In this document: piece by piece, positions 3,545-61,410 of the stretch
Position numbering within the stretch: position 1 is the first letter of the stretch
Layout: every line of letters begins with the position of its first letter
Assembly (NCBI GenBank): GCA_012026655.1
Contig: JAAILG010001610.1
Coordinates: 1-64,000, forward strand
Source: Hydrolagus affinis
Lineage: Eukaryota
Direction of reading: 5' to 3'
DNA length: 64,000 nucleotides
Notes under the pieces: model-generated
The model's input: the letters and a program-made list of their open reading frames with translations, nothing else
What the model was told of the DNA's origin: nothing
The model's database searches: none
Translations under genes and position numbers: made by a program

Positions 3545-3665
3545 AAACGCAAAATACTGCAGATGCTGGAATTGTCTGAAACAAAAACAGTAACCGCTGG
3601 AAACACTCAGCAGGTCAGGCAGCATCTATGGAGAAAGGAAAAGTGTGTCAACGTTTTGGGTCCGT
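3545..3665 (-). mobile_element. Penelope-like element terminal-repeat fragment
   Basis: Reverse complement matches the 3' terminus of the PLE copies at 46613-46724 and 54002-54115; it stops within hammerhead stem II. Confidence 0.7.
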
Positions 3666-10100: not shown

Positions 10101-10340
10101 TTCTAGGTACTGTATTTCCTGTACATCCAACCAAGAGAGAGGGGAGACTTTCATCCCTCCAATTCTGGACTGTATTTGAGCCCAGATCCCAGTGATCACA
10201 CGGACCATTATTTAATTTTGTCCTGTTTAATTTTACAATTCTATTGCTAATAAATTTTGAAACACAATTATCGACGGTTGTAGAATTGCCAAATGTTTTC
10301 TCATCAATAACTTACCATTTTTCCATTTTGTGCTGTGTAG

Positions 10341-10510
10341 TTTTTGAAGAGCCCGAGGACCCCAGTAATCGATCGTTCTTCTCCGAGATCATCTCCTCGA
10401 TATCGGACGTGAAGTTCAGCCACAGTGGCCGCTACATGATGACGAGAGATTACCTCACTGTCAAAGTCTGGGACTTAAATATGGAGAACAGGCCCATAGA
10501 AACATACCAG
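10341..10510 (+). CDS. PPP2R2B: PP2A regulatory subunit B55-beta, antepenultimate coding exon (170 bp)
   Basis: tgtgtag| acceptor and CAG|gtacgt donor; encodes [56 protein letters not shown], recognisable B55 WD40 sequence. Confidence 0.96.
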
Positions 10511-11274
10511 GTACGTGTCTCAATGCACGTCAGGGGAAGATTTACAGCTGGCAGGTTGGTAGGTATCGGGAGCCAATCAGGGCACTTGGGAAATTTCCCA
10601 TGTAGCCAGTCTGCCTCTGGCCAGTCATCTATCCAATATTTCAGCCAACTTTCTAAGCTATGAGAATGAACATTCAGTCCGTTTCCCTCTGGGCAACAAA
10701 GAAATCCTGCACTTAAAGTACCTTGTGCGGTCCTGGTCACTGCAAAATAAGGCAGCCACTGAGGTTTTGCAGATAATACAGGAGGCAGAGGTGAGTTGGA
10801 TCCATCATCTCTGTGATGAGCCATGGGCATAATCGAGGGTTCGTCAGCCTGGAATAGAGACACCTGAGAGAAGATCTTGTGCAAATGTTTATTGGGATCA
10901 ACAAAACATACCTAGAAAAATACTGTCAGATACAGTACACCAAAACAGTATGAAATGAGTGCACAGGTTCATTGTTGTGAGGGACAAATTTAGCACAGGA
11001 AGTAATTGTTAACGCAGAAGGTAGAATGCTGCTGAAGGGAAATTGTATAATAAAAGTGCTGGAGACCAACCGGTGTGTTGCTGGAAAGGAGATAAAGGAA
11101 AACTATATAAATCATCATAATAATAATAGATCATGTCTGACCCTATTTACCTGTGGGCCTGAAATGGTAGTGCACCAAATCTCAAATAGTGGGCAAAGGG
11201 AGTGAAGGAGGCCGCTGCACATGACCAAGATAAATTGGGTTTAGTATCTCACTTTGTGCTTTAAGATGGTGTAT

Positions 11275-11810
11275 CATAGAACTACGCAGCACAGAAGGAG
11301 GCCATTCTGTCCATCCCGTTTGTTCTGGCTCTTTGGAAAGAGTTGTCCAAATCAATCCCAATTCCCCACTCTCTCCCCATAGTCCTGCAAACTTGTCCTC
11401 CCCAAATAATTATCTACTTCTCACTTAAAAGAAGTTATCAAATCAGTTTCCCTTTCATGCGATTCATTCCAGATTCAAACAAGTCACTGTATGGAAATAT
11501 TCTCCTCATTTACCTATTTTAAATCGGTGCCCTCGGTTACCCACCCATTCACCAGTGGAAACAGCTTCTCCTTGTTCACCCTATCAAATCCCCTCATTGT
11601 TTTGAAAACGTCTATAAAGTTTCCTCTTAACTTTCTCTGCTCCAAGGAGAATAATCCTAGCTTCACTTTCACTCCTGATAACTGAAGCCCTCATTCCTGG
11701 TACCATCCTGGTAAATCTCCTTTGCACCCTCTCCAATGCCTTGACATCCTTCCTAAAGTGTGGAGCCCAGAACTGAACCCAGTACTCTGGCTGAGGTCTA
11801 ACCAATTCAA
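11275..11810 (-). mobile_element. CR1 LINE 3' fragment
   Basis: Minus [36 protein letters not shown] is a CR1 ORF2 C-terminal motif; the 3' UTR ends GAATGGCCTCCTTCTGTGCTG...TTCTATG. Confidence 0.85.
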
Positions 11811-14206
11811 CTGAACCCATCACACCCCAATAACCTGTTCTATTATGTATCTGCAGACAGATTCCGCAGACAATCTTTCGGCTGGTGGAACTATGTGATC
11901 TCTGTATGTGATGCCAAGTCGCTTGTAAAGTGATATCTGTAGATCACTTTGTAAATCTGTAGATACATTTACTTATGGTTAATTTACAGTCAATTCAATC
12001 AAAAGATAAAATTGTTGAAACAGGCAATATTGAATGCAATGAATACACCACAATTCAATCATTTTTGCAGAGTTATTAATTTGAATTTCTCGCTTTCTTT
12101 CCTGATCTCCGCATTCTCTCTCTTTTTGCTTCTGAAGAATAACGATACCCTTGTGGTCATACACCATGGTTTGCGGAGCAAGCCTAAGGTTCACTTGTGG
12201 GTTAGAACCTGCCAATACATTTCATAAATCAGTCATTAGTACATTTGCTAATTATTTGATTTGCCTCTGAAGTTGAATTAACATAGCTCTTTGCTTCAAA
12301 GCATTGGACTCCATTCCTGGTTTAGTGGGATAAGCGGAGTTAGTCACCCTACAATTCCTCACACTCCAGTCACTCAACCAAATGGCCAACCTTGAGACGT
12401 GAGCCTTGACATTAAATAGATTCAACTCCACATGCGGAGGTAGGGGGGAGGGGCTCTAATGGTATCTGATATACCATAGAAAGAAAGAAGGAAAGTAATT
12501 CAAGGATAAGGTTGGCCAAAAAATTGTATTTTTATGTGAAAAAATGGGGCAGAAGTTTCAAATGCAAGGTTATTATATGTTGAAGCACAGATGTAAGTAA
12601 CTTCTTTGATTTGGGCAGTAAAAATCCCTGACTGGCCAGGGCTTTGGGATGTTCTCCTGACATGAAAGGTGCTTTACAAATATAATTGGTTGTTGGTGTT
12701 AATGTAAGCTCGGTACTGGAATATAGAGATTCCAATTTAACCAGCCTCAAATCAGACTAGAGAACCAAGGAATTAAAATAGTGTTGTGGCAATATCAACG
12801 TTCATCTAAACAGGCGGATGGGACATTGGATTAATGTGTCATCTGAAAGATTTCACGTCTGACAATTTATTCCCCAAAGTTGCACTGGAGTTCAAAGTCT
12901 CTGACACAGGACTTGATCCCACCACCTTATTAAAATATTAAAGGACTATTATAATCCTTCCATTTGAAATAATGCCTTTCACGGTGGGAAGGGCTTCACG
13001 GAGTAAACAATAAAGTGCGTACTTTGAAAATGAACATGTCAGCCAACCTCTGCACAGTGAGTCCCACACACTGCCCTGAAGTGAATGATCAATAGTATTG
13101 GAGGATTTTTAGCGAAGACTTTAGAGGAAACTCCCTTTGCTAACCAGAGGGGACAGTTCTACCAACTGAACCAGGCTGACATATTTGGACAGCTTTTAAA
13201 CAACTTTAATGTTTGCCCTCCATTCTGCTCAACGCAAACTGGTTCCCCTCTGTAGCATTCATGACAAGCAGTCCTTTCAATCTATGACACCCTCATGAGG
13301 GAAAATAAACCTCACAACGTGAAGCTGTTTGGATGAAAAATGAAACGGATCAAAAAGCGCATCCGAGGCAAATCAAATCACAATGGTTTGTTCATTCATC
13401 CTTCAGATTAAGGGTCAGTGGATAACCCTTCAACAAACTCCAGTAATTCTAACAATATGTCCTGTCTGATTGATTGCTGGTCACTCACCATCACCTCCTA
13501 TTTATGAAAGATAAATGAAATAAGGCCAGATTTTTCATATTACCAGCAGTCTTTCAGAAAAGCTTGTTGATGGTATTAATACAATGATATCTTTGTGAAA
13601 AACCATTGTGTTATAGGGTGAGGTAGGGTGAAAGGCACTGTGGTTGGCCTAGTGGTGTCACCAGTTGGCAAGCAACCACATTATGTACTAATGACTCTCG
13701 AGATGAATGATTTCCAACCAGAAGATGTGGGTTGTGAACGAGCATGAGAAGGATATCTGATACATTACTGATAAACTTTCACAGTATACACAGGGTGTTA
13801 GCTTTCTTGTTTTCCCACCAGATTTTGCTTATTTATAATAATCCTAATTACCATGCAGCTCCTGCGTGTAGCTGATTCAGCTCCTGAAACATCTCAAAGC
13901 GAGTCACAAGGAATTGTCGTCACGTGGTTAGTGATGGGTTTATTCGTGGGCAAACGCAGCAACCACTTTGTGCACAGCTATAGTGTGTATTATCAATTAA
14001 ACTGGGCATCTATTGGCCAACACAGTGTGAAAAAACTCCCTGCTCTTTACATAGTGTCCTGAGATCTTTGCAACATTCATCTAAAGGATGACACCTCCAA
14101 AAAGTCAGCATCCCGCAGTCTAGCCACACCAACCCCGACATGTGGCTTGAACCAACAATCTTCTAACTCGAATAGGTGACTGCTACCAGTTGAGTCTGCT
14201 TAAGGC

Positions 14207-15042
14207 AACAATAACGACAACTTGGATTTATATAGCGCCCTCCACGCCAGATGGCATCTCAGAGCGCTTCACAATAGCAGAGCCCGAGGCCGAGCCAGGG
14301 GGAGGGGGAAGCTGACCGTAGGCGCGGTCGAACAGAAAGGTCTTCAGACACGACCTGAAAATGGAAAAGGAAGTGGTGAGGTGGAGGGATTGAGGGAGGG
14401 AGTTCCAGAGTTTCGGGGCGTAGTGACTGAAAGCACAGCCGCTGATGGTGGAGTGGAGGATTCGGGGGACAGGAAGAGGCCAAATCCAGTAGAGCGGAGT
14501 CAGCGGGTACTGCTGTGAGGAGAGAGGAGGTTAGAGAAGTAGGGGGATGCAGAGGAATGGAGGGATTTAAATATAAGAGTGAGGCTCTTGAAGTCAATCC
14601 TCTCTGTGACAGAGCCAGTGAAGTGTGGTGAGGACCAGGGTAATCAGAGAGTGAAGTTTGGTTCAGGTGAGAATGCAGGTGGCGGACTTCTGTATGAGCT
14701 GGAATTTGCTATGGTGGTGGAGGGGAGACCGTGAGGAGGCTGTTGGAATTGTACAGCCAAGGATGGCTGTACAGGATGTAGATAAGGAAGAGTAGGGGGC
14801 CAAAGATGGCTCCTTGGGGTACACCGCTGGTGACCGGGCGAAAGCAAGAGGAAAAGCTGCTGGCAGACATGTACTGCTGGCAGTTTGTGAGGTAGGACTT
14901 GAACCAAGCGAGTGCGATCCCACTGAGGTGGACAGGCGGTGGAGGAGGATGGTGTGATCGACTGTCTCGAAGGCAGCGGGGAGGTCCAGGAGGACAAGGA
15001 GGCAGAGGGAGCCCTGGTCACAGATAGAGAGGACATCATCCT
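14207..15042 (-). mobile_element. L2-clade LINE fragment (family B), internally deleted
   Basis: Minus strand has LVLLDLPAAFETVDH and GVPQGAIFGPLLF-like RT segments; its 3' end GCGCTCTGAGATGCCATCTGGCGTGGAGGGCGC...GTTG matches the copy ending at 50569. Confidence 0.85.
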
Positions 15043-15178
15043 CTGAAGTACAAGTGCTACCAACTGAGTCAAGCTCAAATAATCACTGCATATAACAATA
15101 ATTACCAGTGAGAAATGCTTTGAGAGTGGCATTCTAGGCAATGTAAAAATACATGTCCATTCTTTATTTACTGAAGTT

Positions 15179-15393
15179 CAATAAAAGCTTGTTTATCCGG
15201 CACCCTCGGGACCTGGCCAATGCCAGTCAAAGCACCTGCCGGATATTCGGCCGAAAACGAAAAAAAAACATTATTTTTTTTCAATGCATTTTTCCAGATA
15301 AATTCCGGTTAATTGAATGCGGACCTTTTCTTTGCAATGCCGGTTATACGGAAGTTATGTTTGATCGGGTGCCGGATAAACACGCTTTTACTG
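15179..15393. mobile_element. Tc1/mariner (Tigger/pogo-like) MITE
   Basis: 27-bp terminal inverted repeats CAATAAAAGCTTGTTTATCCGGCACCC / GGGTGCCGGATAAACACGCTTTTACTG (25/27 match), TA on the right flank, no coding capacity. Confidence 0.85.
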
Positions 15394-15490
15394 TACTGAA
15401 CATCTTCTGTGTCACTACTAGTTAGACTGGTCCAGCCTGTCAGTCTCACCAGCCCAGGCACTCATTTGTCTTCTGTTGGTCTTATTTCAG

Positions 15491-15582
15491 GTTCATGAGT
15501 ACCTAAGAAGCAAGCTGTGTTCCCTATATGAAAACGACTGCATCTTTGACAAGTTTGAATGTGTTTGGAATGGCTCTGACAG
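15491..15582 (+). CDS. PPP2R2B: PPP2R2B penultimate coding exon (92 bp)
   Basis: tatttcag| acceptor and AG|gtgggt donor; encodes [30 protein letters not shown](S), in frame with both flanking exons. Too short for the ORF track. Confidence 0.96.
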
Positions 15583-16139
15583 GTGGGTGATGCTTTTCAT
15601 CTCTTCTTCCCTTCAAATTCGTAAGCATTAGACTAGTAAACCCATTATCAATTTTTGTCTGTGAACGCTTCATTAATTTATCTTTCAGCAGCTGTAGCAT
15701 ACAACTCTGTGAAGATCCGTGTAGAGTTAATTTATTTATTTATTTATTTAAATGTTAGAACTTACTGGTTTATTCTGAAATGCTGTGAACAGGAGCTTGT
15801 ATTTTAGAATCACCCTCAGGATGTGAAAAGGCTGCTTGTACTCTCGGTGGCATAGATAATAGGATTCTGGAAACTGGTTGCTACAAATTCAGGTCTGATA
15901 TATTAGACATGTAGGGATGTGATGTCAGTGTTAGCTGTGCATGGATCATTCTCTCACAACTCCCATCATGTAGGTTTACTGTGCAGTGTGTGTAAACTCA
16001 AGTGTACAGAGTTCATTTACATTTAGGTGCTCATAATTGAGTTATTAGTCAATGAAAATAGATACACAATTAATAAATCCTTAATTGTTATCACTCAATA
16101 TCTGATAATAATAATAATAATAAAGCTTGCTTTTTAATG

Positions 16140-16451
16140 TAGTACACACCTTTGTTATCCGGAACCCGGGAGTGCCGATTAATCAAATATGCCAGATATT
16201 TGAGTGGCAAGTTGCCAAAAATCCAACAACATTTTTTAAACTTATTTTAAAATATACCATATTAATAATAGATTAAATAATACTTACCAATAAAGCATTC
16301 CAGCGTTCGGTAAGTTTAATAAGTGCACATGCGCAAAGTGAGCATACCGCGAGTGTCTCGGATGGCTACGGTGTGAGATCCGGTTGCTGGAATGGTGAAT
16401 TGCATTGGGAGAAACCGGTTGGTTGGGTACCGGATAAATAAGGTTTTACTG
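16140..16451. mobile_element. Tigger/pogo-like MITE related to the 15179 element
   Basis: Imperfect TIRs TAGTACACACCTTTGTTATCCGGAACCC / GGGTACCGGATAAATAAGGTTTTACTG followed by TA; shares the TTATCCGG.ACCC core. Confidence 0.75.
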
Positions 16452-17157
16452 TAGCAGTAATGTTGAAATTTGTCAAAGTGCTTCACAGGAAATTGCTGAC
16501 CAGCCTGCGTCACACCCACTGCCCCAATATCAGCAATTTCAGCATTTTGCCCACAAATATACAGTATATTCTGTAAAGCACTTTGAAATATCATGAAGAT
16601 GTGAAAAGCACCATATCAAACGCAATGATGATTTATTATTATTATGTGCCCCCAAACGCTGGACTCCATCCTTTGACTCTTTGACTTGCTTCTTCCCTTG
16701 ACTCCTTCAAGGTCTGTCTCAAGACGTTCCAGGCTTTGAGCCATCTTTCCCCTTTCGCCTTCTACCTCTCAGTTCTCATTAATTTATCATTCAGCAGCTA
16801 TAGTTTGTAACAACACTTTGAAGATCCGTGTATGAGTGCATGGGTACTCACCCCGGGCAATCCAGCAACTCCCACAATATATCAGTGTAAATTTGTACTG
16901 TATTGTTAGAAAATATAAGCAAGAACCGACTTCCAAATTAAGACAGAATTCAAGATTTTTTTGAAAATTCTGCACAATCCTAGGTTATCGTTCCAAAATA
17001 AACATCATGAGGAATTTGGGGTTGAGCCCTTCAATTCAATCACTGTCACTGACTACAGTGTTTTGTTCAGGCACTGCCTGCTGCCACCCATCATCTGTTT
17101 ATTCACTGCACAGACACTGTGTGCTAAACACTCACCCTGTGTGTATCTGCTTTCCAG

Positions 17158-17437
17158 TGTGATCATGACGGGCTCTTACAACAACTTCTTTCGAATGTTT
17201 GACCGTAACACAAAGAGGGATGTGACTCTGGAAGCCTCCCGGGAGAACAGCAAACCCCGAGCCATCCTGAAGCCTCGCAAAGTGTGCATGGGCGGGAAGA
17301 GGAAGAAAGACGAGATCAGTGTCGACAGTTTGGACTTCAGTAAGAAGATTCTGCACACGGCCTGGCATCCCTCAGAGAACATCATTGCAGTGGCAGCCAC
17401 CAACAACCTTTATATATTCCAGGACAAAGTGAACTAG
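17158..17437 (+). CDS. PPP2R2B: PPP2R2B last coding exon
   Basis: tttccag| acceptor; [42 protein letters not shown]...[13 protein letters not shown]. The sequence is beta-paralog-like and synteny with GPR151/TCERG1 supports PPP2R2B. Confidence 0.95.
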
Positions 17438-34093: not shown

Positions 34094-34409
34094 TAATAAT
34101 AATAATAATCCTTGAATTTGATATAACACTTTTCACATCTTCTAGACATCTCAAAGTGCTTCACAGAATATACTGTAAAGTGAATTGACTGTATATGTGT
34201 GCGAAACGCAGCAGTCAATTTTGCACCGAGGTGTCCCACAAATAGTTGTGGATTGAAGTGACCAATTTATTATCGGCTTTTTTTTCTTGAGGGATTATTA
34301 ATGGGAGTGTGGAGTAAGGAAACTTGCCCAAGGTTTCACCCTACCAGGAATTGAACCCAGGTCGCTAGCTTGCGAGGTGAGTGCTCTAACCACTGAGCTA
34401 CAGAACTCC
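34094..34409 (-). mobile_element. Full-length tRNA-derived SINE
   Basis: On the minus strand: A box TAGCTCAGTGG, B box GGTTCAATTCC, family body, (ATT)n tail. Confidence 0.92.
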
Positions 34410-34565: not shown

Positions 34566-34878
34566 GGAGCTCCTGTGGTTCAGTGGTTAGAGCTCTTGCC
34601 TTACAAGCGTGAGACCTGTGTTCGAATCCAGGCAGGTCAGGGCGAAACCTTGGGCAAGTTTCCTTACTCCACACGCCTAATAATAATCCCTCCAAAAAAC
34701 GCATAATAATAAAATCGGTCACTTCAACCCACGACTGTGTGTGGGACACAGCTGTGCACAATTGGCTGCTGTGTTTCGCCCACAAATATACAGTCAATTC
34801 AATTTAAAGTGAAGCGCTTTGAGACGTTGATAAGATGTGGAAAGCCGCTATATCAAATGCAAGGATTATTATTATTAT
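34566..34878 (+). mobile_element. Full-length tRNA-derived SINE
   Basis: A box TGGTTCAGTGG, anticodon-like arm GCCTTACAAGC, B box GTTCGAATCC, family body, (ATT)n tail. Confidence 0.92.
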
Positions 34879-40068: not shown

Positions 40069-40392
40069 ATAATAATAATAATCCTTGCATTTGATATAAT
40101 GTTTTTCACATCTTATCGATGTCCCAAAGCGCTTCACAGAATATACTGTAAAGTGAATTGACTGTATATTTGTGGTTGAATCGCAGCAGCCAATTGCGCA
40201 CAGCAGTGCCCCACCAACAGTCGTGGATTTAAATGACCAATTTTATTATTGTGTTTTTTTTTTTGACGGATTATTATTAGGCGTGTGGAGTAAGGAAACT
40301 TGCCCAAGGCTTCGCCCTGACCTGCCTGGATTCGAACACAGGTCTCCCCAGCTTGCAAGACAAGTGCTCTAACCACTGAGCCACAGGAGCTC
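40069..40392 (-). mobile_element. Full-length tRNA-derived SINE
   Basis: Reverse complement closely matches 34566-34878. Confidence 0.92.
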
Positions 40393-43845: not shown

Positions 43846-44156
43846 TAATAATAATAATAATCCTTGCATTTGATATAGCGCTTTTCACATCTAATCGACG
43901 GCCCAAAGTGCTTCACAGAATATACTGTAAAGTGAATTGACTGTATATTTGTGGGCAAAATTCAGCAGCCATTTGCGCACAGCAGTGTCCCACAAACAGT
44001 TGTGAATTGAGTGACCAAATTATTATTTTAATTTTTTTTGGAGGGATTATTATTAGGCGTGTGGAGTAAGGAAACTAGGTTTCGCCTTGCCTGGAATTGA
44101 ACCCAGCTCTCTCGCTTGTAAGTGAGAGTGCTCTATCCACTGAACTACAGGACTCC
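43846..44156 (-). mobile_element. Full-length tRNA-derived SINE
   Basis: Family consensus on the minus strand with (ATT)n tail. Confidence 0.92.
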
Positions 44157-45164: not shown

Positions 45165-45388
45165 GATACCGGAAATCTGAGACAAAAACAGAAGTAGCTG
45201 GGCACACTCGGCAAGTCGGGCAGCATCTATGGAGAAAGGAAAGTGAATCAACATTTCAGGTCCACAACCCTTCATCAAAATGTTAACTCACTTTCCTTTC
45301 TCCATAGATGTTGCTTGACCTATCAAGTGTTCCCAGTGATTTCTGCTTTTGTCTCAGATTTCCAGTATCTGCAGTATGTTGCATTTCA
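45165..45388. mobile_element. Palindromic mini-Penelope (two inverted terminal fragments)
   Basis: 45165-45260 and 45278-45370 are imperfect reverse complements, each matching the PLE 3' terminus. Confidence 0.8.
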
Positions 45389-45943: not shown

Positions 45944-46726
45944 ACAAAAACAGAAGTTGCTGGGGAAACTCAGCAGGTCATGCAGCATCCATGGAGAAAG
46001 GAAAATGAGTCAACGTTTCAGGTCAGAACTGGGGCTTATTTGGAGGGAGGGGCTTTTAAGGATGTTAGAGGGGGAGAGGCAGGACATGGAAGACAAAGGA
46101 GACAAAGAAGACAAAGACAAAGGAAAAAGAAAACAGAGTGTGTTAACTGATGGGTTGAAAATGTGATAACGATATAAGGGGGAGAAACAACAGGGAATGG
46201 GTTTAAATGAAACTGGGGAGAAGAGGTGTTTAGTGGTGATAGAACAAACAAAACACCAGAGAGGCAAGGGGTATCTGGAGTTATGATTGTGATGGGGGAG
46301 AGGGTGGGGAAGGGGAAGCCCTTATGGCCTGAAATGGCTGAAATCAATATTGAGGCCAGATGGCTGAAGGGTGTCCACTAGATAGATGAGGTGCTGTTCC
46401 TCAAGCTTTTGCTGTGGGTCACTGGAACAGCGCAGGAGACCATGGATCGAAAGATCAGCCTCTGAATGTGAGCGCAAGTTGAAATGTACGGAAGGTCAAC
46501 CTTGATCTTCAGTCTCCCTCCATTCCATGTCCTGCCTCTCCCCCTCTATTCCATGTTCTTAAAAACCTCTCCCACCAAACAAGCCCCAGTTCTGACGAAG
46601 GGTTGTAGACCTGAAACATTGACTCGCTTTCCTTTCTCCATGGATGCTGCCTGACCTGCTGAGTTTCCCCAGCAACTTCTGTTTTTGTTTCAGATTCCCA
46701 GCAACTGTAGTATTTTGTGTTTTGAA
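45944..46726. mobile_element. Penelope-like element, 5'-truncated with inverted terminal repeat
   Basis: Minus strand 46490-46322 reads VHFNLRSHSEADLSIHGLLRCSSDPQQKLEEQHLIYLVDTLQPSGLNIDFSHFRP*, a PLE GIY-YIG endonuclease C-terminus. 46511-46726 is an inverted copy of the 3' end. Direct repeat ACTGTAAAGTGAA flanks it at 45931-45943 and 46727-46739. Confidence 0.88.
46588..46624 (+). ncRNA. Minimal type I hammerhead ribozyme motif in PLE terminal repeat
   Basis: AGTT-CTGACGA-A-GGGTT-GTA-GACCT-GAAA-CATT-GACT: conserved core, stem II, stem I AGUU/GACU. Stem III carries CA instead of CG. Confidence 0.7.
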
Positions 46727-49157: not shown

Positions 49158-50569
49158 CTGGATCTATCCACCGCTTTTGACACAGTTGATCAGGCGTTCC
49201 TCTTCCACCACCTGTCCTCTGTCATCCACCTCAATGGGATCACACTCTCCTGGTTCAAGTCCTACCTCACAAACCGCCAGCAGTACATCTCCGCAAACGG
49301 CTTTTCCTCCCGCTCTCACCCAGTTACCTGTGGGGTACCCCAGGGATCCATCCTTGGTCCCCTTCTCTTCCTTATCTACATGCTCCCTCTTGGGGATGTC
49401 TTCCGCAGACATGGGCTACACTTCCACATGTATGCGGATGACACCCAACTCTATTTCTCCACCTCACTTTGCGACCCCCCAGTCCCACCGGCCTGTCAGA
49501 CATCAGGAGCTGGATGAGCGCGAATTTCCTTCAGCTAAATGTTGACAAGATGGAAGCCATACTCTTTGGCTCTCGTCATCATATTCAATCCCACAGCTCT
49601 CACCTACTCTATCTACCAGACTTGTTCCTAAAACTCTCCGAACCCCTAAGCATCAGGTTTGATCCCCAATTATCCTTCCTCTCCCACATCTGGTCCTTAA
49701 CCAGCATCACTTTCTTCCATTCCGACGCATTGCCCATCTCTGCCAATATCCCACCTCAATCCCGCAGAAACTGTGATCCATGCATGCTCTACCATTCATA
49801 AAATCTAGGTTATCCAAAATTCTGCCACCCGCATTCGCACCCAAACCAAATTCTCTCACCGATTAATCCAGTCCTTGCTAGACTGCACTGGCTCCCTGTG
49901 TCGGAGACGATCGATTTCAAGATCTTCACTCTTGTTTTCAAATCCCTCCACTCCTCTGCACCCCCCTACCTTTTCCTCCTCTCTCCTCACAAACCGCCAG
50001 CAGTACTATCTGTTGCCTTCACTCTACTGGGTCTGGCCTCTTCCTTGTTCCCCAAATTCACCACTCCACCATCGGCAGCCGTGCCTTCAGCCACTACAAC
50101 AACAACAACAAAATTACATTTATAGAGCGCCTTTCACGTCAGGAGGACTTCCCAAGTCGCTGAACAGTCAGGTCGGGACCCGAGCAGGGAGGTAAGGGGT
50201 CGGGGTAGGGGGAAGGAGAGTAGGAGAGGGGGAAGAGTTAGGATGGGGGCAGAAGGCACGGTTGAAGAGGAAGGTCTTGAGACCGGCCTTGAAGGAGGAA
50301 AGGAAGGAAGAAGCGAGGCGAAGGGATTGCGGGATGGAGTTCCAGAGTGTGGGGGCAGACGCCCTGAGGCTCTGGAACTCCCTTCCTCACTCCCTTCGCC
50401 TCACCCCCACTCTTCCTATTTTCAGGTCTCGGCTAAAGACCTTTCTTTTCAACCGCGCTTTTGGTCACCTTTTTCTCCCTCCCCCTGGCTTCGCCCTGAG
50501 ATCCGTTAATGCGCTCTGAGACGCCGTTCGGCATGGAGGGCGCTATATAAATCAAAGTTGTTGTTGTTG
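49158..50569 (+). mobile_element. L2 family B 3' fragment with RT, interrupted at 50097-50358
   Basis: LDLSTAFDTVD, WFKSYL, GVPQGSILGPLLFLIYMLPLG, MYADDTQLY; ends with stem-loop and (TTG)n. Confidence 0.92.
50097..50358 (-). mobile_element. L2 family A 3' fragment nested in family B copy
   Basis: (CAA)n tail and 3' UTR matching 47169-47440; the host sequence resumes at GCCCTGAGGCTCTGGAACTCC. Confidence 0.9.
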
Positions 50570-50819
50570 CAATTTGCTAACAAGACTCACATTAATAATG
50601 TCATTTGGTGAAATAGTAATAGTTGTGTGGAACAATGGAAGTATAAGCAGAGAAAGCCAGGTAGGTAATTATTGAGCAGAGTCTCACCTATTTATATTAA
50701 CAATATAATTCTTGCAATAAAAACGGAAATCACTGGTAACTCGCAACAGGTCAGGCAGAATCTATGGAGAGACAAAACTTAATTAAGATTTCAGATTGAT
50801 GACAATTTGCCAGAACTGC

Positions 50820-51174
50820 AATAATAATTCTTGCATTTGATATAATGACTTATCATGTTGTTGAGATGAATCAAAACTCTTCCCAGAATATACTCTGAAG
50901 TAAATTGACTGTATGTTTTGTGGGCGAAGCGTGATGGCCTATTGCACACAGCAGCACAAACAGTCATGGATTGAATGACCCAATTATTATTTTATTTGGA
51001 AGGGATTATTACCCCGGTAAAGTGACCCACCAATTGACTGCCAACTGTGTTACTACTTACTGATAGGTGAACAGAAGTGTGTGGAATAAGGAAACTTGCT
51101 TAAGATTCATCCCGTCCAATAATCAAATTTAGGTTCTCTCACTTGCGAGGTGAGCACACTAACCACAGGATTCC
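50820..51174 (-). mobile_element. tRNA-derived SINE, long (older) subfamily
   Basis: Family head and tail plus an extra central segment at about 51012-51078 that is absent from short copies. Confidence 0.8.
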
Positions 51175-53172: not shown

Positions 53173-53595
53173 CGGGTGTGCATAATTTAGGCCTAGGCGC
53201 TGGTATCTACATTGCTTGGCACTAAATTTAAAGAGTTGACAAACGTAAGCAGGAGAGCACAAGACCAATCGTGGACATAGATGGTTTGGGGAGTGGGCAC
53301 GTTCAATGTAGAATGTCACAAAATAGTACATTTTTTGAGGAAAAATTAAGGAATTGCCGCTATGGTAATATTCCTTTTAAAGTCTCTCTATGCTACGTTG
53401 TTAGTATGCATTACAGTACAGCAAATCATCTTTAATGTGCAAAATAGGTTGTCCACAGTTGGTTCCAGTGAATAAATCTAAGGAATTGATCTCTTAGTTG
53501 TATCTTACTGTAAGAAAGATTTGATGTAGACATTTATTTGGGGAGGACGGGTTTGCGAGGTTATGGGGAGAGAGCTGGGGAGTGGGATTAAACTG

Positions 53596-54116
53596 GGGAC
53601 ACTACTGGGGACACTACAGCCGTCTGGACTCAACATCGATTTCAGCCATTTCAGGCCATAGGAGCTTTCCCCACCTTAACCCCCACCACCTTCCCCCCAC
53701 CCCCCACTTTTTTGCCCCATCACAATCATAACTCCAGACACCCCCTGCCTCTCTGGTGTTTTGTTTTGTTCTATCACCATTAAACACCTCTTTCCCCAGT
53801 TTCGTTTAAACCCACCCCCTTCTGTTTCTCCCCCTGAAGTCGTTAACACATATTCAACCCATCAGTTAACACACTTTTTTTTTCCTTTTCCTTTGTTTTC
53901 TTTGTCTCCTTTGTCTCCATGTCCTGCCTCTTCCCCTTTAACATCCTTAAGAAACCTCTCCCTCCAAACAAGCCCCAGTTCTGATGAAGGATTGTAGACC
54001 CGAAACGTTGACTCCTTTTCCTTTCTCATGGATGCTGCCTGACCTGCTGAGTTTCCCCAGAAACTTCTGTTTTTGTTTCAGATTCCCAGCCTCTGTAGTA
54101 TTTTGTGTTTTGTTTT
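53596..54116 (+). mobile_element. Penelope-like element 3' fragment
   Basis: LGTLQPSGLNIDFSHFRP* (53605-53661) followed by a pyrimidine-rich pLTR closely matching the reverse complement of 45944-46375; imperfect TSD AGTGGGATTAAA / AGTGGGGTTAAA. Confidence 0.88.
53977..54013 (+). ncRNA. Minimal type I hammerhead ribozyme motif in PLE terminal repeat
   Basis: AGTT-CTGATGA-A-GGATT-GTA-GACCC-GAAA-CGTT-GACT; palindromic ACGU stem III; predicted cleavage after 54009; one mismatch in stem II. Confidence 0.75.
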
Positions 54117-54300
54117 AGTGGGGTTAAATTGCTCTTTTTAAAGAGCCGGCACAGACTCGATGGGCCGAATGGCCTCCTTTTGTGCCGTAAGCTTCTATGC
54201 TTCTATGTGAATATTCAGACTAGAATATATTGATTAAAAAAATTATCTTCCTCAAAGACAATTCTATTACATTTGAATCATAAAACCTCTGTTGAACAGG

Positions 54301-54694: not shown

Positions 54695-55003
54695 TAGTAA
54701 TAATAATAATCCTTGCATTTGATATAGAGCTTTTCACGTCTTCTAGATGTCTCAAAGCGCTTCACAGAATATATGGTAAAGTGAATCGATTGTATATTTG
54801 TTGGCAAAACACGGCAGCCAATTGCGCACAGCAGTGTCCTACAAATATTTTGGGATTGAAATGACCAATTTTTTTTTTTTTTTAATGGATTATTAAAGGC
54901 GTGTGGAGTAAGGAAACTCGGCCAAGGTTTTGCCCTGCCGAGAATTGAACCCAGGTCTGTCACTTGTAAGGTGATTGTTCTAACCACTGAGCTACAGGAC
55001 TCC
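54695..55003 (-). mobile_element. Full-length tRNA-derived SINE
   Basis: Family consensus on the minus strand with (ATT)n tail. Confidence 0.92.
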
Positions 55004-57813: not shown

Positions 57814-57969
57814 AGCTGCTGTTTGCCTGGCTTCAAATTGCTACATTCTTGTTGTCCAGTAGCCAGAGTTCAGACGGCAAATCTCAGTTTATGAAGGGAT
57901 ATTGAACACAGGAGCGAGCGCCAGCCAGAACAGAGAATCGTTTTGCTTGTGTGGTTTTAAAGTAACGCA

Positions 57970-59250
57970 ATGGAAAAGCTTCCTCTTCAGGTCTATCATC
58001 ACCTGTACATCCCCAACAGCACCAATGATTTCATCCTCTTCGCTGGAGGGACCCAAGATATCGATTCGAGGCAGCTGAGAATTGTGATCCTAATGACTTT
58101 AGGAGTGATCTGTGTGGTAGGTTTCTCTGGGAATCTCCTGGTGCTAACCGTTCTGATTAACAACGCCAGAAAGGGCAAAACTTCGATGATAAACTCACTG
58201 ATTTTGAACCTGAGTGTGGCAGACTTGCTGATCATGCTGTTCTGTGTCCCGTTCAGAGCTGTCGCCTATTCCAAGTCCACCTGGGCTCTCGGCTGGTTTA
58301 TTTGCAAAACGGCAGATTGGTTTCTGCAATGCTGCTTGGCTGTGAAGAGTTTTACAGCGGCTGTGTTGGCCAAAGCTTGCTTCATGTACGTGACACATCC
58401 ATCCAAACAAGTGCAAATTAAGCATCACAGAATCGTGGGTCTCATCACTTCCATATGGGGAATAGCGTTCGTTCTCCCCATCCCTGACTGGCTCTACGCT
58501 ACCATGAAATATGAGACAGATAAGGTTCTGTGTGTTTTTGAAATCCCAGCGCATGCATCTGATGTTATGGCAATTTTTGCAAAGCTCTACCCCGGCTTGG
58601 TTTACTGCCTCCCCATGAGCTTTGCATTTGTTTATCACTGGAAGGCTTTCTGGAGATGCAAACGTCGAGGGACCAAGACCCAAACCTTACGGAATCAGAT
58701 CAGGGGCAGACGCTTGACTGTGATGCTGTTCAGCGTCAGTCTGACCTTAGCTGCCCTGTGGGCTCCAGAGTGGGTCACTTGGCTTTGGATGAGACACGTT
58801 CAGAAGAACGGCCCAGCGCCTCCTCCCTCCTTCACCCTGATGGCTCAAATGCTGGTCTTTACAATTTCTTCAGTCAACCCTCTCATCTTTGTCGCTGTAT
58901 CCGAGGAGTTCCGGGAAGGTTTCAAGGGCCTGTGGAAGAGAATGATTTCCAGGAAGTCTCAAAGAGCACCAGATGTTCCAGGTGCCCAATCCCAGACTAA
59001 CCCTGAAAGTGTCCCCCCTGACCCTGCCCTGCCCCAGGAGGTACAACCTGTCTGGGTTCGGGACCAAGAGGCTCCGACGAAGGAAGCATCAGACAGCCCA
59101 TCAAGTAAAACCGGTAATATCGTCCTGTCAGACATGGAACAATTTTGGCACGATAGACAGAACACACCAGGCTGCACAGAGGATGACCCAACCCCTTGGG
59201 AACATCAGAAAGATTCAGAATTGCTCCAGCCCACGGAGGCACTGGAATGA
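57970..59250 (+). CDS. GPR151: G protein-coupled receptor 151 (single-exon class A orphan GPCR, galanin-receptor-related), 426 aa
   Basis: Seven hydrophobic segments with GN, LSVADL and NPLIF; diagnostic stretches RGTKTQTLRNQIR, SEEFREG, EQFWHDR, DPTPWEH; located between PPP2R2B and TCERG1. Confidence 0.97.
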   Translation: MEKLPLQVYHHLYIPNSTNDFILFAGGTQDIDSRQLRIVILMTLGVICVVGFSGNLLVLTVLINNARKGKTSMINSLILNLSVADLLIMLFCVPFRAVAYSKSTWALGWFICKTADWFLQCCLAVKSFTAAVLAKACFMYVTHPSKQVQIKHHRIVGLITSIWGIAFVLPIPDWLYATMKYETDKVLCVFEIPAHASDVMAIFAKLYPGLVYCLPMSFAFVYHWKAFWRCKRRGTKTQTLRNQIRGRRLTVMLFSVSLTLAALWAPEWVTWLWMRHVQKNGPAPPPSFTLMAQMLVFTISSVNPLIFVAVSEEFREGFKGLWKRMISRKSQRAPDVPGAQSQTNPESVPPDPALPQEVQPVWVRDQEAPTKEASDSPSSKTGNIVLSDMEQFWHDRQNTPGCTEDDPTPWEHQKDSELLQPTEALE

Positions 59251-60823: not shown

Positions 60824-61410
60824 GGAGTCCAGTAGCACTCACCTCGCAAGCGAGAGTACCTGGCTTTGATTCCTGGGCAGGGTGAAATGTTGGGCAAGTT
60901 TCCTTACTCCACACTTCTACAATATAATAATCCTTGCATTTGATATAGTGCTTTTCACTTCTTCCAGATGTCTCAGAGCGCTTCACAAAATATACTGTAA
61001 AGTGGTTTGACTGTATACTTGTGGACAAATGTGGCAGCCAATTGTGCACAGCAGTGTCTCACAAACAGTCGTAGATTGAAATAACCAACTTTATTATTGT
61101 GGGGGGTTTTTGTGGGGGGTGGGGGGGAGGGGGGATTATTATTAGGCGTGTGGAGTAAGGAAACTTGCCCAAGGTTTCGCCCTGACCTGCCTGGATTTGA
61201 ACACAGGACTCACGCTTTTAAGGCGAGTACTCTAACCACTGAGCTACAGGGGCTCCACAGGACTACAGGAGCTTCTGTTCACGTAATAAATAGGAATCCA
61301 GTTGTTAGTCAGTTGGCAGATTACTTTTCTGGGGATAATAATCACTTCAAACTAAATAATAATTTGGTCACTCAATCCACAATTGTTTATGGGACCCTGC
61401 TGTGCGCAGC
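60824..61410 (+). mobile_element. Long-subfamily SINE split by an antisense short-subfamily SINE
   Basis: Head 60824-60918 ends ...CTCCACACTTCT; the body resumes at 61272 with CTTCTGTTCACGTAATAAATAGGAATCC...GGGGATAATAATC. Confidence 0.75.
60921..61256 (-). mobile_element. Full-length tRNA-derived SINE (short subfamily)
   Basis: Matches 40069-40392. Confidence 0.92.

Follow-up and report, generated by a model that had tools for sequence, protein, structure and literature searches.

The window analysed here, a 64,000-nucleotide stretch of Hydrolagus affinis DNA, carries a hammerhead-like sequence at 53977–54013 on the plus strand, raising the question of whether such a ribozyme routinely cuts the RNA of its own family and, through dispersed copies, host transcripts, as an earlier note on this DNA had proposed. 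By direct reading, the sequence runs AGTT/CTGATGA/A/GGATT GTA GACCC/GAAA/CG/TT/GACT, letter for letter as claimed in that note. It comprises the helix I 5′ strand AGUU (53977–53980), which lies within an initiator-like CCAGTTC and is the start point of most family copies; the core C3–A9 (CUGAUGA) with an extra A (53981–53988); stem II (53989–54001); G12–A15.1, the palindromic ACGU (dimer helix III), U16.1 and H17 = U (54002–54009; numbering per PMC4209133); and the helix I 3′ strand GACU (54010–54013). With the first C of CUGA numbered 0, the A of AGUU stands at −4 and the predicted cut falls between +28 and +29, after 54009, i.e., after GAAACGUU. The CUGANGA...GAAA...UH core is present in type I order and, judged by its sequence, the motif is a genuine minimal hammerhead of type I; its site is GUU and it lies in the terminal repeat of a Penelope-like element, with reverse transcriptase (RT) and GIY-YIG domains upstream in longer copies, in agreement with the earlier note.

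The insertion at 53593–54116 and other copies in the window

Stem II of this copy reads GGAUU-GUA-GACCC and forms four of its five pairs, pair 10.3–11.3 being an A-C mismatch that comparison with family copies found in this copy alone; the family has G-C at this position (G at 10.3 in 64 of 69 arms). The consensus GGGUU/GACCC offered earlier was right, the stem II of the family being GGGU(U/C)/GACCC. The predicted pairing probability of stem II was at most 0.1 in this copy versus 0.8–1.0 in a typical copy, and the 37-nt fold was not more stable than shuffled sequences (z = 0.70; typical copy, z = −1.29, not significant). Comparison with Rfam, a check suggested with the original claim, matched no hammerhead model in the whole window at E ≤ 5 or in 121-nt stretches of this and a typical copy at E ≤ 10. 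The ACGU palindrome is intact in this copy and kept by the majority sequence of each of the three subfamilies, and no intact partner ribozyme for this copy occurs in the 64-kb window. These predictions suggest that the ribozyme of this copy is likely inactive.

A 5′-truncated, 524-bp insertion of a Neptune-type Penelope-like element (PLE; 53593–54116, plus strand) carries the hammerhead 100 nt short of its 3′ end and is flanked by a 12-bp target-site duplication (TSD; 53581–53592 on the left and, with one mismatch, 54117–54128 on the right). Its host is another repeat, the empty form of which is seen in reads and other copies of which give empty-site joints skipping 536 bases. The insertion opens with a 12-nt tandem duplication (53593–53616); similar short 5′-end repeats occur at five other loci. 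The final 18 codons and stop of the endonuclease (LGTLQPSGLNIDFSHFRP*; 53605–53661) recur as the end of long ORFs with GIY-YIG (PF01541) and RT, and a Pfam search with the 55-aa endonuclease end gave no match. A pyrimidine-rich 3′ UTR or upstream part of the pseudo-LTR (pLTR) spans 53662–53976, and the downstream repeat part with an optional tail of ~34 nt occupies 54014–54116 (first 3′ end at ~54080; tail, 54081–54116). Judged by the splice-signal consensus, acceptor-like signals lie at 53936–53978 (branch-point-like CTTTAAC at 53936–53942, CAG at 53976–53978), at the first tail end (TTTCAG, 54075–54081) and, at one other locus, right before the ORF ATG; no splice donor matching these signals was identified. 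The insertion lies between the last exon (16919–17437) of a PP2A B55-type gene (exons 10196–17437, plus strand) and an intronless 7TM gene consisting of a single exon (57961–59250, plus strand), an order that we take to be that of PPP2R2B and GPR151. This copy lies outside both coding genes recognised in the 64 kb, and the suggestion that dispersed copies cut host transcripts is not borne out.

The two further hammerhead copies reported earlier are both present and both damaged. The second insertion (45944–46726; 13-bp TSD, 45931–45943/46727–46739), which is nested in a SINE of an abundant family, is a head-to-head pair with an endonuclease end and a deleted ribozyme core in its minus arm (~45990–46040) and a hammerhead at 46588–46624 in its plus arm, the helix III palindrome of which is lost (ACAT). 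The third (45165–45381) is a small fold-back of two decayed arms, with a minus-strand hammerhead at ~45245–45282 that carries C3→T and ATGT for the palindrome. Copies in the 64-kb window are solo or head-to-head, and none forms a tandem array in which every unit has an intact hammerhead. Two further decayed family arms, lacking a complete core, lie at 3545–3662 and 50713–50830 (minus). The SINE family is also represented by tRNA-like heads at 34336–34407, 34572–34636, 40321–40387, 44082–44154, 54930–55001 and 61186–61250, and two inverted LINE-like 3′ fragments form a long hairpin at 50252–50462, which drew spurious miRNA-family matches far below gathering scores.

Size, layout and decay of the family

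A genome-wide search for the core pattern including the extra A (CTGANGAAN{11,19}GAAACGTT) gave 4,307 exact matches versus 37 for the reversed pattern used as the control, and a 26-nt anchor downstream of the core gave 6,306 versus 0. The extra A was correctly pointed out, being present in 68 of 69 aligned arms, but its standing as a special variant or a novelty is rejected, since it is a consensus feature of metazoan PLE hammerheads in the available part of PMC4209133 and forms without it lie near background (379 matches genome-wide versus 308 in the control). A separate GUC/GUA family was not seen in the genome, for which 230 matches were obtained (87 in the control), those listed being mostly point mutants.

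Longer copies encode RT (DKG, YIDD), then a CX4CXXC linker, then GIY-YIG; the order from RT to GIY-YIG is visible in three broken copies, and a profile scan matched two of three proteins (RVT_1, E = 3e-6, below the gathering score; GIY-YIG, E = 2e-5). No intact ORF occurs among the copies examined, all of which are broken. The linker CQRRRCNTC of several copies fits the CX2-5CxxC feature of Neptune, which is common to Nematis too (PMC8557442, available part), and the clade, read from the linker alone, points to a Neptune-type EN+ PLE. In two copies the tail runs straight into the ORF start; the tail is non-coding, and ~170 nt separate the core from the first plausible ATG downstream. The unit thus consists, in this order, of hammerhead, tail, ORF (RT, CxxxxCxxC linker, GIY-YIG), 3′ UTR and hammerhead. 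The 3′ ends of 98 arms, 47 of which have an inverted partner, cluster near +99 and +133, fitting the PLE tail as described in the accessible text of PMC11167929 and PMC8557442, and the pLTR, optional 30–40-bp tail, inverted 5′-truncated arm and TSD were all found in the family. Seven mini-elements with an internal deletion (L248, L250, L252, L256, L258, L261 and L267) consist of a ribozyme, tail and 130–990 nt of ORF start, with a second ribozyme joined at AGTT; their two same-strand ribozymes, 0.3–1.1 kb apart, resemble retrozyme precursors. Four loci (L253, L254, L256 and L274) have in common a 5′ flank from outside the element and an ORF piece of ~990 nt and, judging from these shared parts, go back to a single chimeric insertion through amplification or duplication.

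Stem II defines three subfamilies, GGGUU-GUA-GACCC, GGGUC-GUG-GACCC and the older AGGUC-AUC-GACCU; the last, collected with a 28-nt pattern fixing both 10.1/11.1 bases, has helix I AGUU/AACU and 15 exact matches, 14 of them with a linked A1.1. The majorities of the three subfamilies differ at none of the 15 core positions and at 20 of the 92 others (p = 0.035). Among the 69 aligned copies, 91.8% of stem cells are paired, a double-sided change from G-C to A-U at 10.1/11.1 in seven rows represents a single evolutionary event, and two single-sided stem changes occur between subfamilies, with helix I U-G to U-A in nine rows. The stem covariation score was reached by six of 500 shuffles, and relatedness of copies can give such a score. 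A core unchanged across three subfamilies, together with the G-C to A-U change in stem II, suggests that the motif is likely selected in active elements, modest support coming from these few events. In a metagenome scan, approximately 18 of 80 loci, from unrelated organisms, had a stem II of at least three pairs and shared the extra A and ACGU, with 12 unrelated hammerheads differing in stem II. None of the 80 loci was a member of this PLE family, and they therefore offer no cross-species covariation.

Individual genomic copies decay neutrally, their cores no better kept than the flanks. The core and palindrome are kept in 17 of 69 copies, and stem II as well in 15; losses concentrate at CpG, with G8, G12 and the palindrome decaying at CpG rates and the core unprotected. 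The proposal that dispersed copies cut host transcripts is not supported: lone copies lack a dimer partner, their cores decay like flanks, and 15 of 69 are intact. Deletions at microhomology recur within the ribozyme (GAC to GAC, TGAC to TGAC), in 13 of 100 among the matches listed and likewise at 45990–46040 (minus) in the window.

Where genomic copies begin

The 5′ limits were mapped for all exact tail-anchor matches on contigs 1–114, comprising 99 loci and 98 distinct arms. Sixty arms start at −7 to +1, 16 further upstream and 21 at +4 to +37, not counting a single arm at +30; no arm among the 98 starts at +28 or +29. The end rate per base is 13.4% within −7 to +1 versus 0.66% downstream and 1.3% upstream, the 5′ edge being a 9-nt band rather than a single base. 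Solo arms start in this band in 35 of 51 cases, and a TSD was found for 12 of 35 short solo copies versus 0 of 105 shifted controls, the rest possibly having been missed through mis-set ends or decay. All 15 copies of the older subfamily were scored at 0 to −6, one of them (L436) visibly extending further upstream. Nine of 30 ORF-start loci reach the upstream ribozyme, seven of which start at −2 to −6 (four with a common flank), and none of the 30 starts at +29. Most genomic copies begin at the front edge of the hammerhead rather than at the predicted cut, suggesting that the element is likely copied from uncut RNA. Starts at +26/+27, the axis of the AACGTT palindrome, were seen in five of 98 arms, four of them in fold-backs.

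Dimeric cleavage at the GUU site as the normal processing of family RNA, with dispersed copies also cutting host transcripts, would fit the preservation of the core across subfamilies, and a weak excess of arms does begin at +29. Scored by eye among the genome-wide matches listed, 19–20 of 100 were starts at +29 (132 matches in all), five of 100 at +30 (249 in all) and 11–15 of 100 at +28 (138 in all), which scales to approximately 25 arms at +29 versus 12 at +30 and 15–21 at +28 (p = 0.04–0.12), an excess at the cut that is weak and at most roughly twofold. However, approximately 16 of the 19 candidate +29 starts among the matches listed are fold-back junctions, often with 1–4 nt of microhomology, and at most ~1% of arms would derive from cut RNA. 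Same-strand ribozyme pairs 0.3–1.1 kb apart, in line with such processing, occur at six of 30 ORF-linked loci, but both ribozymes are intact today in none of the six, and the available text of PMC4209133 describes uncleaved min-HHR monomers and low cleavage of dimers. The RNA data, polyA single-cell runs of one sample from an organism that may not be Hydrolagus affinis, show no peak of molecule begins or ends; they show a depth step at the same 5′ edge and loose host-like ends at −4/−3, reflecting embedded copies and not a mapped start. With no arm of 98 at the cut and 60 at the 5′ edge of the ribozyme, the routine processing proposed earlier appears improbable.

A barrier to copying is a somewhat stronger contender, albeit an unlikely one: RT, or second-strand resolution by the endonuclease, would halt past a folded, protein-bound ribozyme within a longer RNA. 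The spread of the 5′ boundary over ~9 nt, junctions with microhomology and short templated repeats, and the protein-dependent folding of the PAc ribozyme (PMC11167929, available part) are in keeping with such a halt, and the 16 of 98 arms that extend further upstream show that longer RNAs exist. RT reaches the structure from its 3′ side, however, so a stall would be expected at +20 to +33, where ends are rare (0.66% per nt), and chimeras restart cleanly at AGTT. All seven readable ORF-to-ribozyme chimeras do so; their joints show microhomology or a small number of extra bases, and a GT donor is missing from each; among other chimeras, four lack a readable core and four restart further upstream.

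The chimeras also bear on splicing, by which the 5′ boundary would be a 3′ splice site, an intron ending at the CAG before helix I and the spliced RNA being copied. Support comes from the 115 long-copy matches (redundant loci), 98 of which carry a branch-point-like heptamer and 113 the AG, and from the D. virilis Penelope intron, which ends at helix I (PMC4209133, available part), but the short copies have no common first exon upstream, TSDs often abut the 5′ boundary, and GT follows the joint in none of the seven chimeras, all of which keep AGTT. The chimeras lend no support to splicing, a very improbable cause of the 5′ boundary.

Proposed scenario and comparison with known systems

We propose, as the rather probable explanation, that the motif is the minimal hammerhead of an abundant PLE terminal repeat, that this 5′-truncated copy is predicted to be inactive, and that the RNA of the family probably starts with the first base of helix I and is probably copied into cDNA without having been cut. 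The 7-nt CCAGTTC at helix I, where the RNA would start, matches the initiator consensus. As in Anolis PAc, for which this has been shown (PMC11167929, available part), the RT-endonuclease would prime at a site in the tail. Priming at the first tail would leave ~100–140 nt to the RNA 5′ end and yield the dominant short ‘ribozyme + tail’ inserts, or would be followed by a jump to another template, and priming at the second tail would give variably truncated copies such as the 53593–54116 insertion. Self-cleavage, if any, would involve two ribozymes paired via ACGU, probably with protein assistance, and would take RNA out of the copying pool or act rarely. An RNA start at helix I with uncut copying from either tail would explain the short inserts, the chimeras and the longer 53593–54116 copy, and agrees with PAc, in which ribozyme mutants insert normally and no reads lie at the cut, and with the internal pLTR promoter of D. 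virilis. Counting against a helix I start, however, are the lack of a molecule-start peak in polyA reads and an initiator match of just 7 nt.

More tentatively, and with the odds slightly against it in our view, a fuller version may hold: the transcript would start at helix I nt 1 with the ribozyme 5′-terminal and overlapping the promoter, the short copies (tens of thousands) would be full-length run-off cDNAs that were primed at the first tail and reach the cap, template jumps would build head-to-head and chimeric forms, and the hammerhead would be a mostly uncut, protein-gated switch, the cutting of which (~1% of arms) diverts RNA from insertion. If true, the helix I start makes it possible to test by mapping why PLEs retain hammerheads, thousands of copies forming a record of the RNA ends copied, in which the template would have begun at helix I and seldom been cut. 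Confirmation by 5′-end mapping would rule out routine cleavage followed by copying for this family and would locate the promoter and the fold-back origin. The 5′-edge pattern is a testable side result, and the ribozyme itself is of known class. No published description of PLE 5′ ends at helix I was found in a search that did not cover Lunse et al., and Fig. S2 of PMC11167929, on insertion ends, may show it.

In Anolis Poseidon PAc, according to the available text (Frangieh et al., 2024; PMC11167929), the substrate is mainly RNA that has not been cut, and the hammerhead is dispensable for in vitro insertion. Uncut RNA as the template and the lack of reads at the cut site are listed as common to both systems, as are two 3′ ends approximately one tail apart downstream of the ribozyme, whereas the PAc ORF starts inside stem II and the first plausible ATG here lies well downstream of the core. 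Neptune-type EN+ PLEs (Craig et al., 2021; PMC8557442, available part), for which hammerhead function is called unclear, share with the present family a single ORF that holds RT (DKG, YIDD), the CX4CXXC linker and, at its C-terminus, GIY-YIG, as well as partial tandems, inverted 5′-truncated arms, a 30–40-bp tail and a 10–15-bp TSD; unlike theirs, the ORF is broken in all copies examined here. Non-LTR retrozymes (Li et al., 2026; bioRxiv 10.64898/2026.07.22.740005), reported, in the part available, in one chondrichthyan, likewise have a type I hammerhead derived from PLE pLTRs, but they are tandem arrays with a ribozyme per unit, whereas here copies occur singly or head-to-head and have TSDs of their own. 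The D. virilis Penelope transcript, in the description available, has its start ~120 nt before helix I, a distance made up of 46 nt and a 75-nt intron, and so further upstream than the start proposed for the present family.

The closest likeness is to the metazoan PLE min-HHR (Cervera & De la Pena, 2014; PMC4209133), for which the available text gives an extra A, a palindromic ACGU and cleavage as dimers as consensus and counts ~4,000 solo copies in coelacanth and ~9,000 in Xenopus; dimer cleavage was also addressed by Lunse et al., as cited in the available part of the review PMC6765202. Type I topology, a 4-bp helix I, G10.1-C11.1, an unpaired nucleotide between 9 and 10.1, palindromic 15.2–16.2, pLTR location, thousands of solo copies and opposite-strand pairs are common to both. 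Stem II here has 5 bp and a 3-nt loop versus 7–8 bp in Schistosoma families, the older subfamily has A10.1-U11.1 versus G10.1-C11.1, and the part of PMC4209133 available names no cartilaginous fish and describes no 5′-end pile-up at helix I. The extra nucleotide, palindrome, dimer dependence and mass dispersal are published in that paper, as far as its available text goes, so the headline observation was already known, and the ribozyme adds one more family to the class described in 2014.
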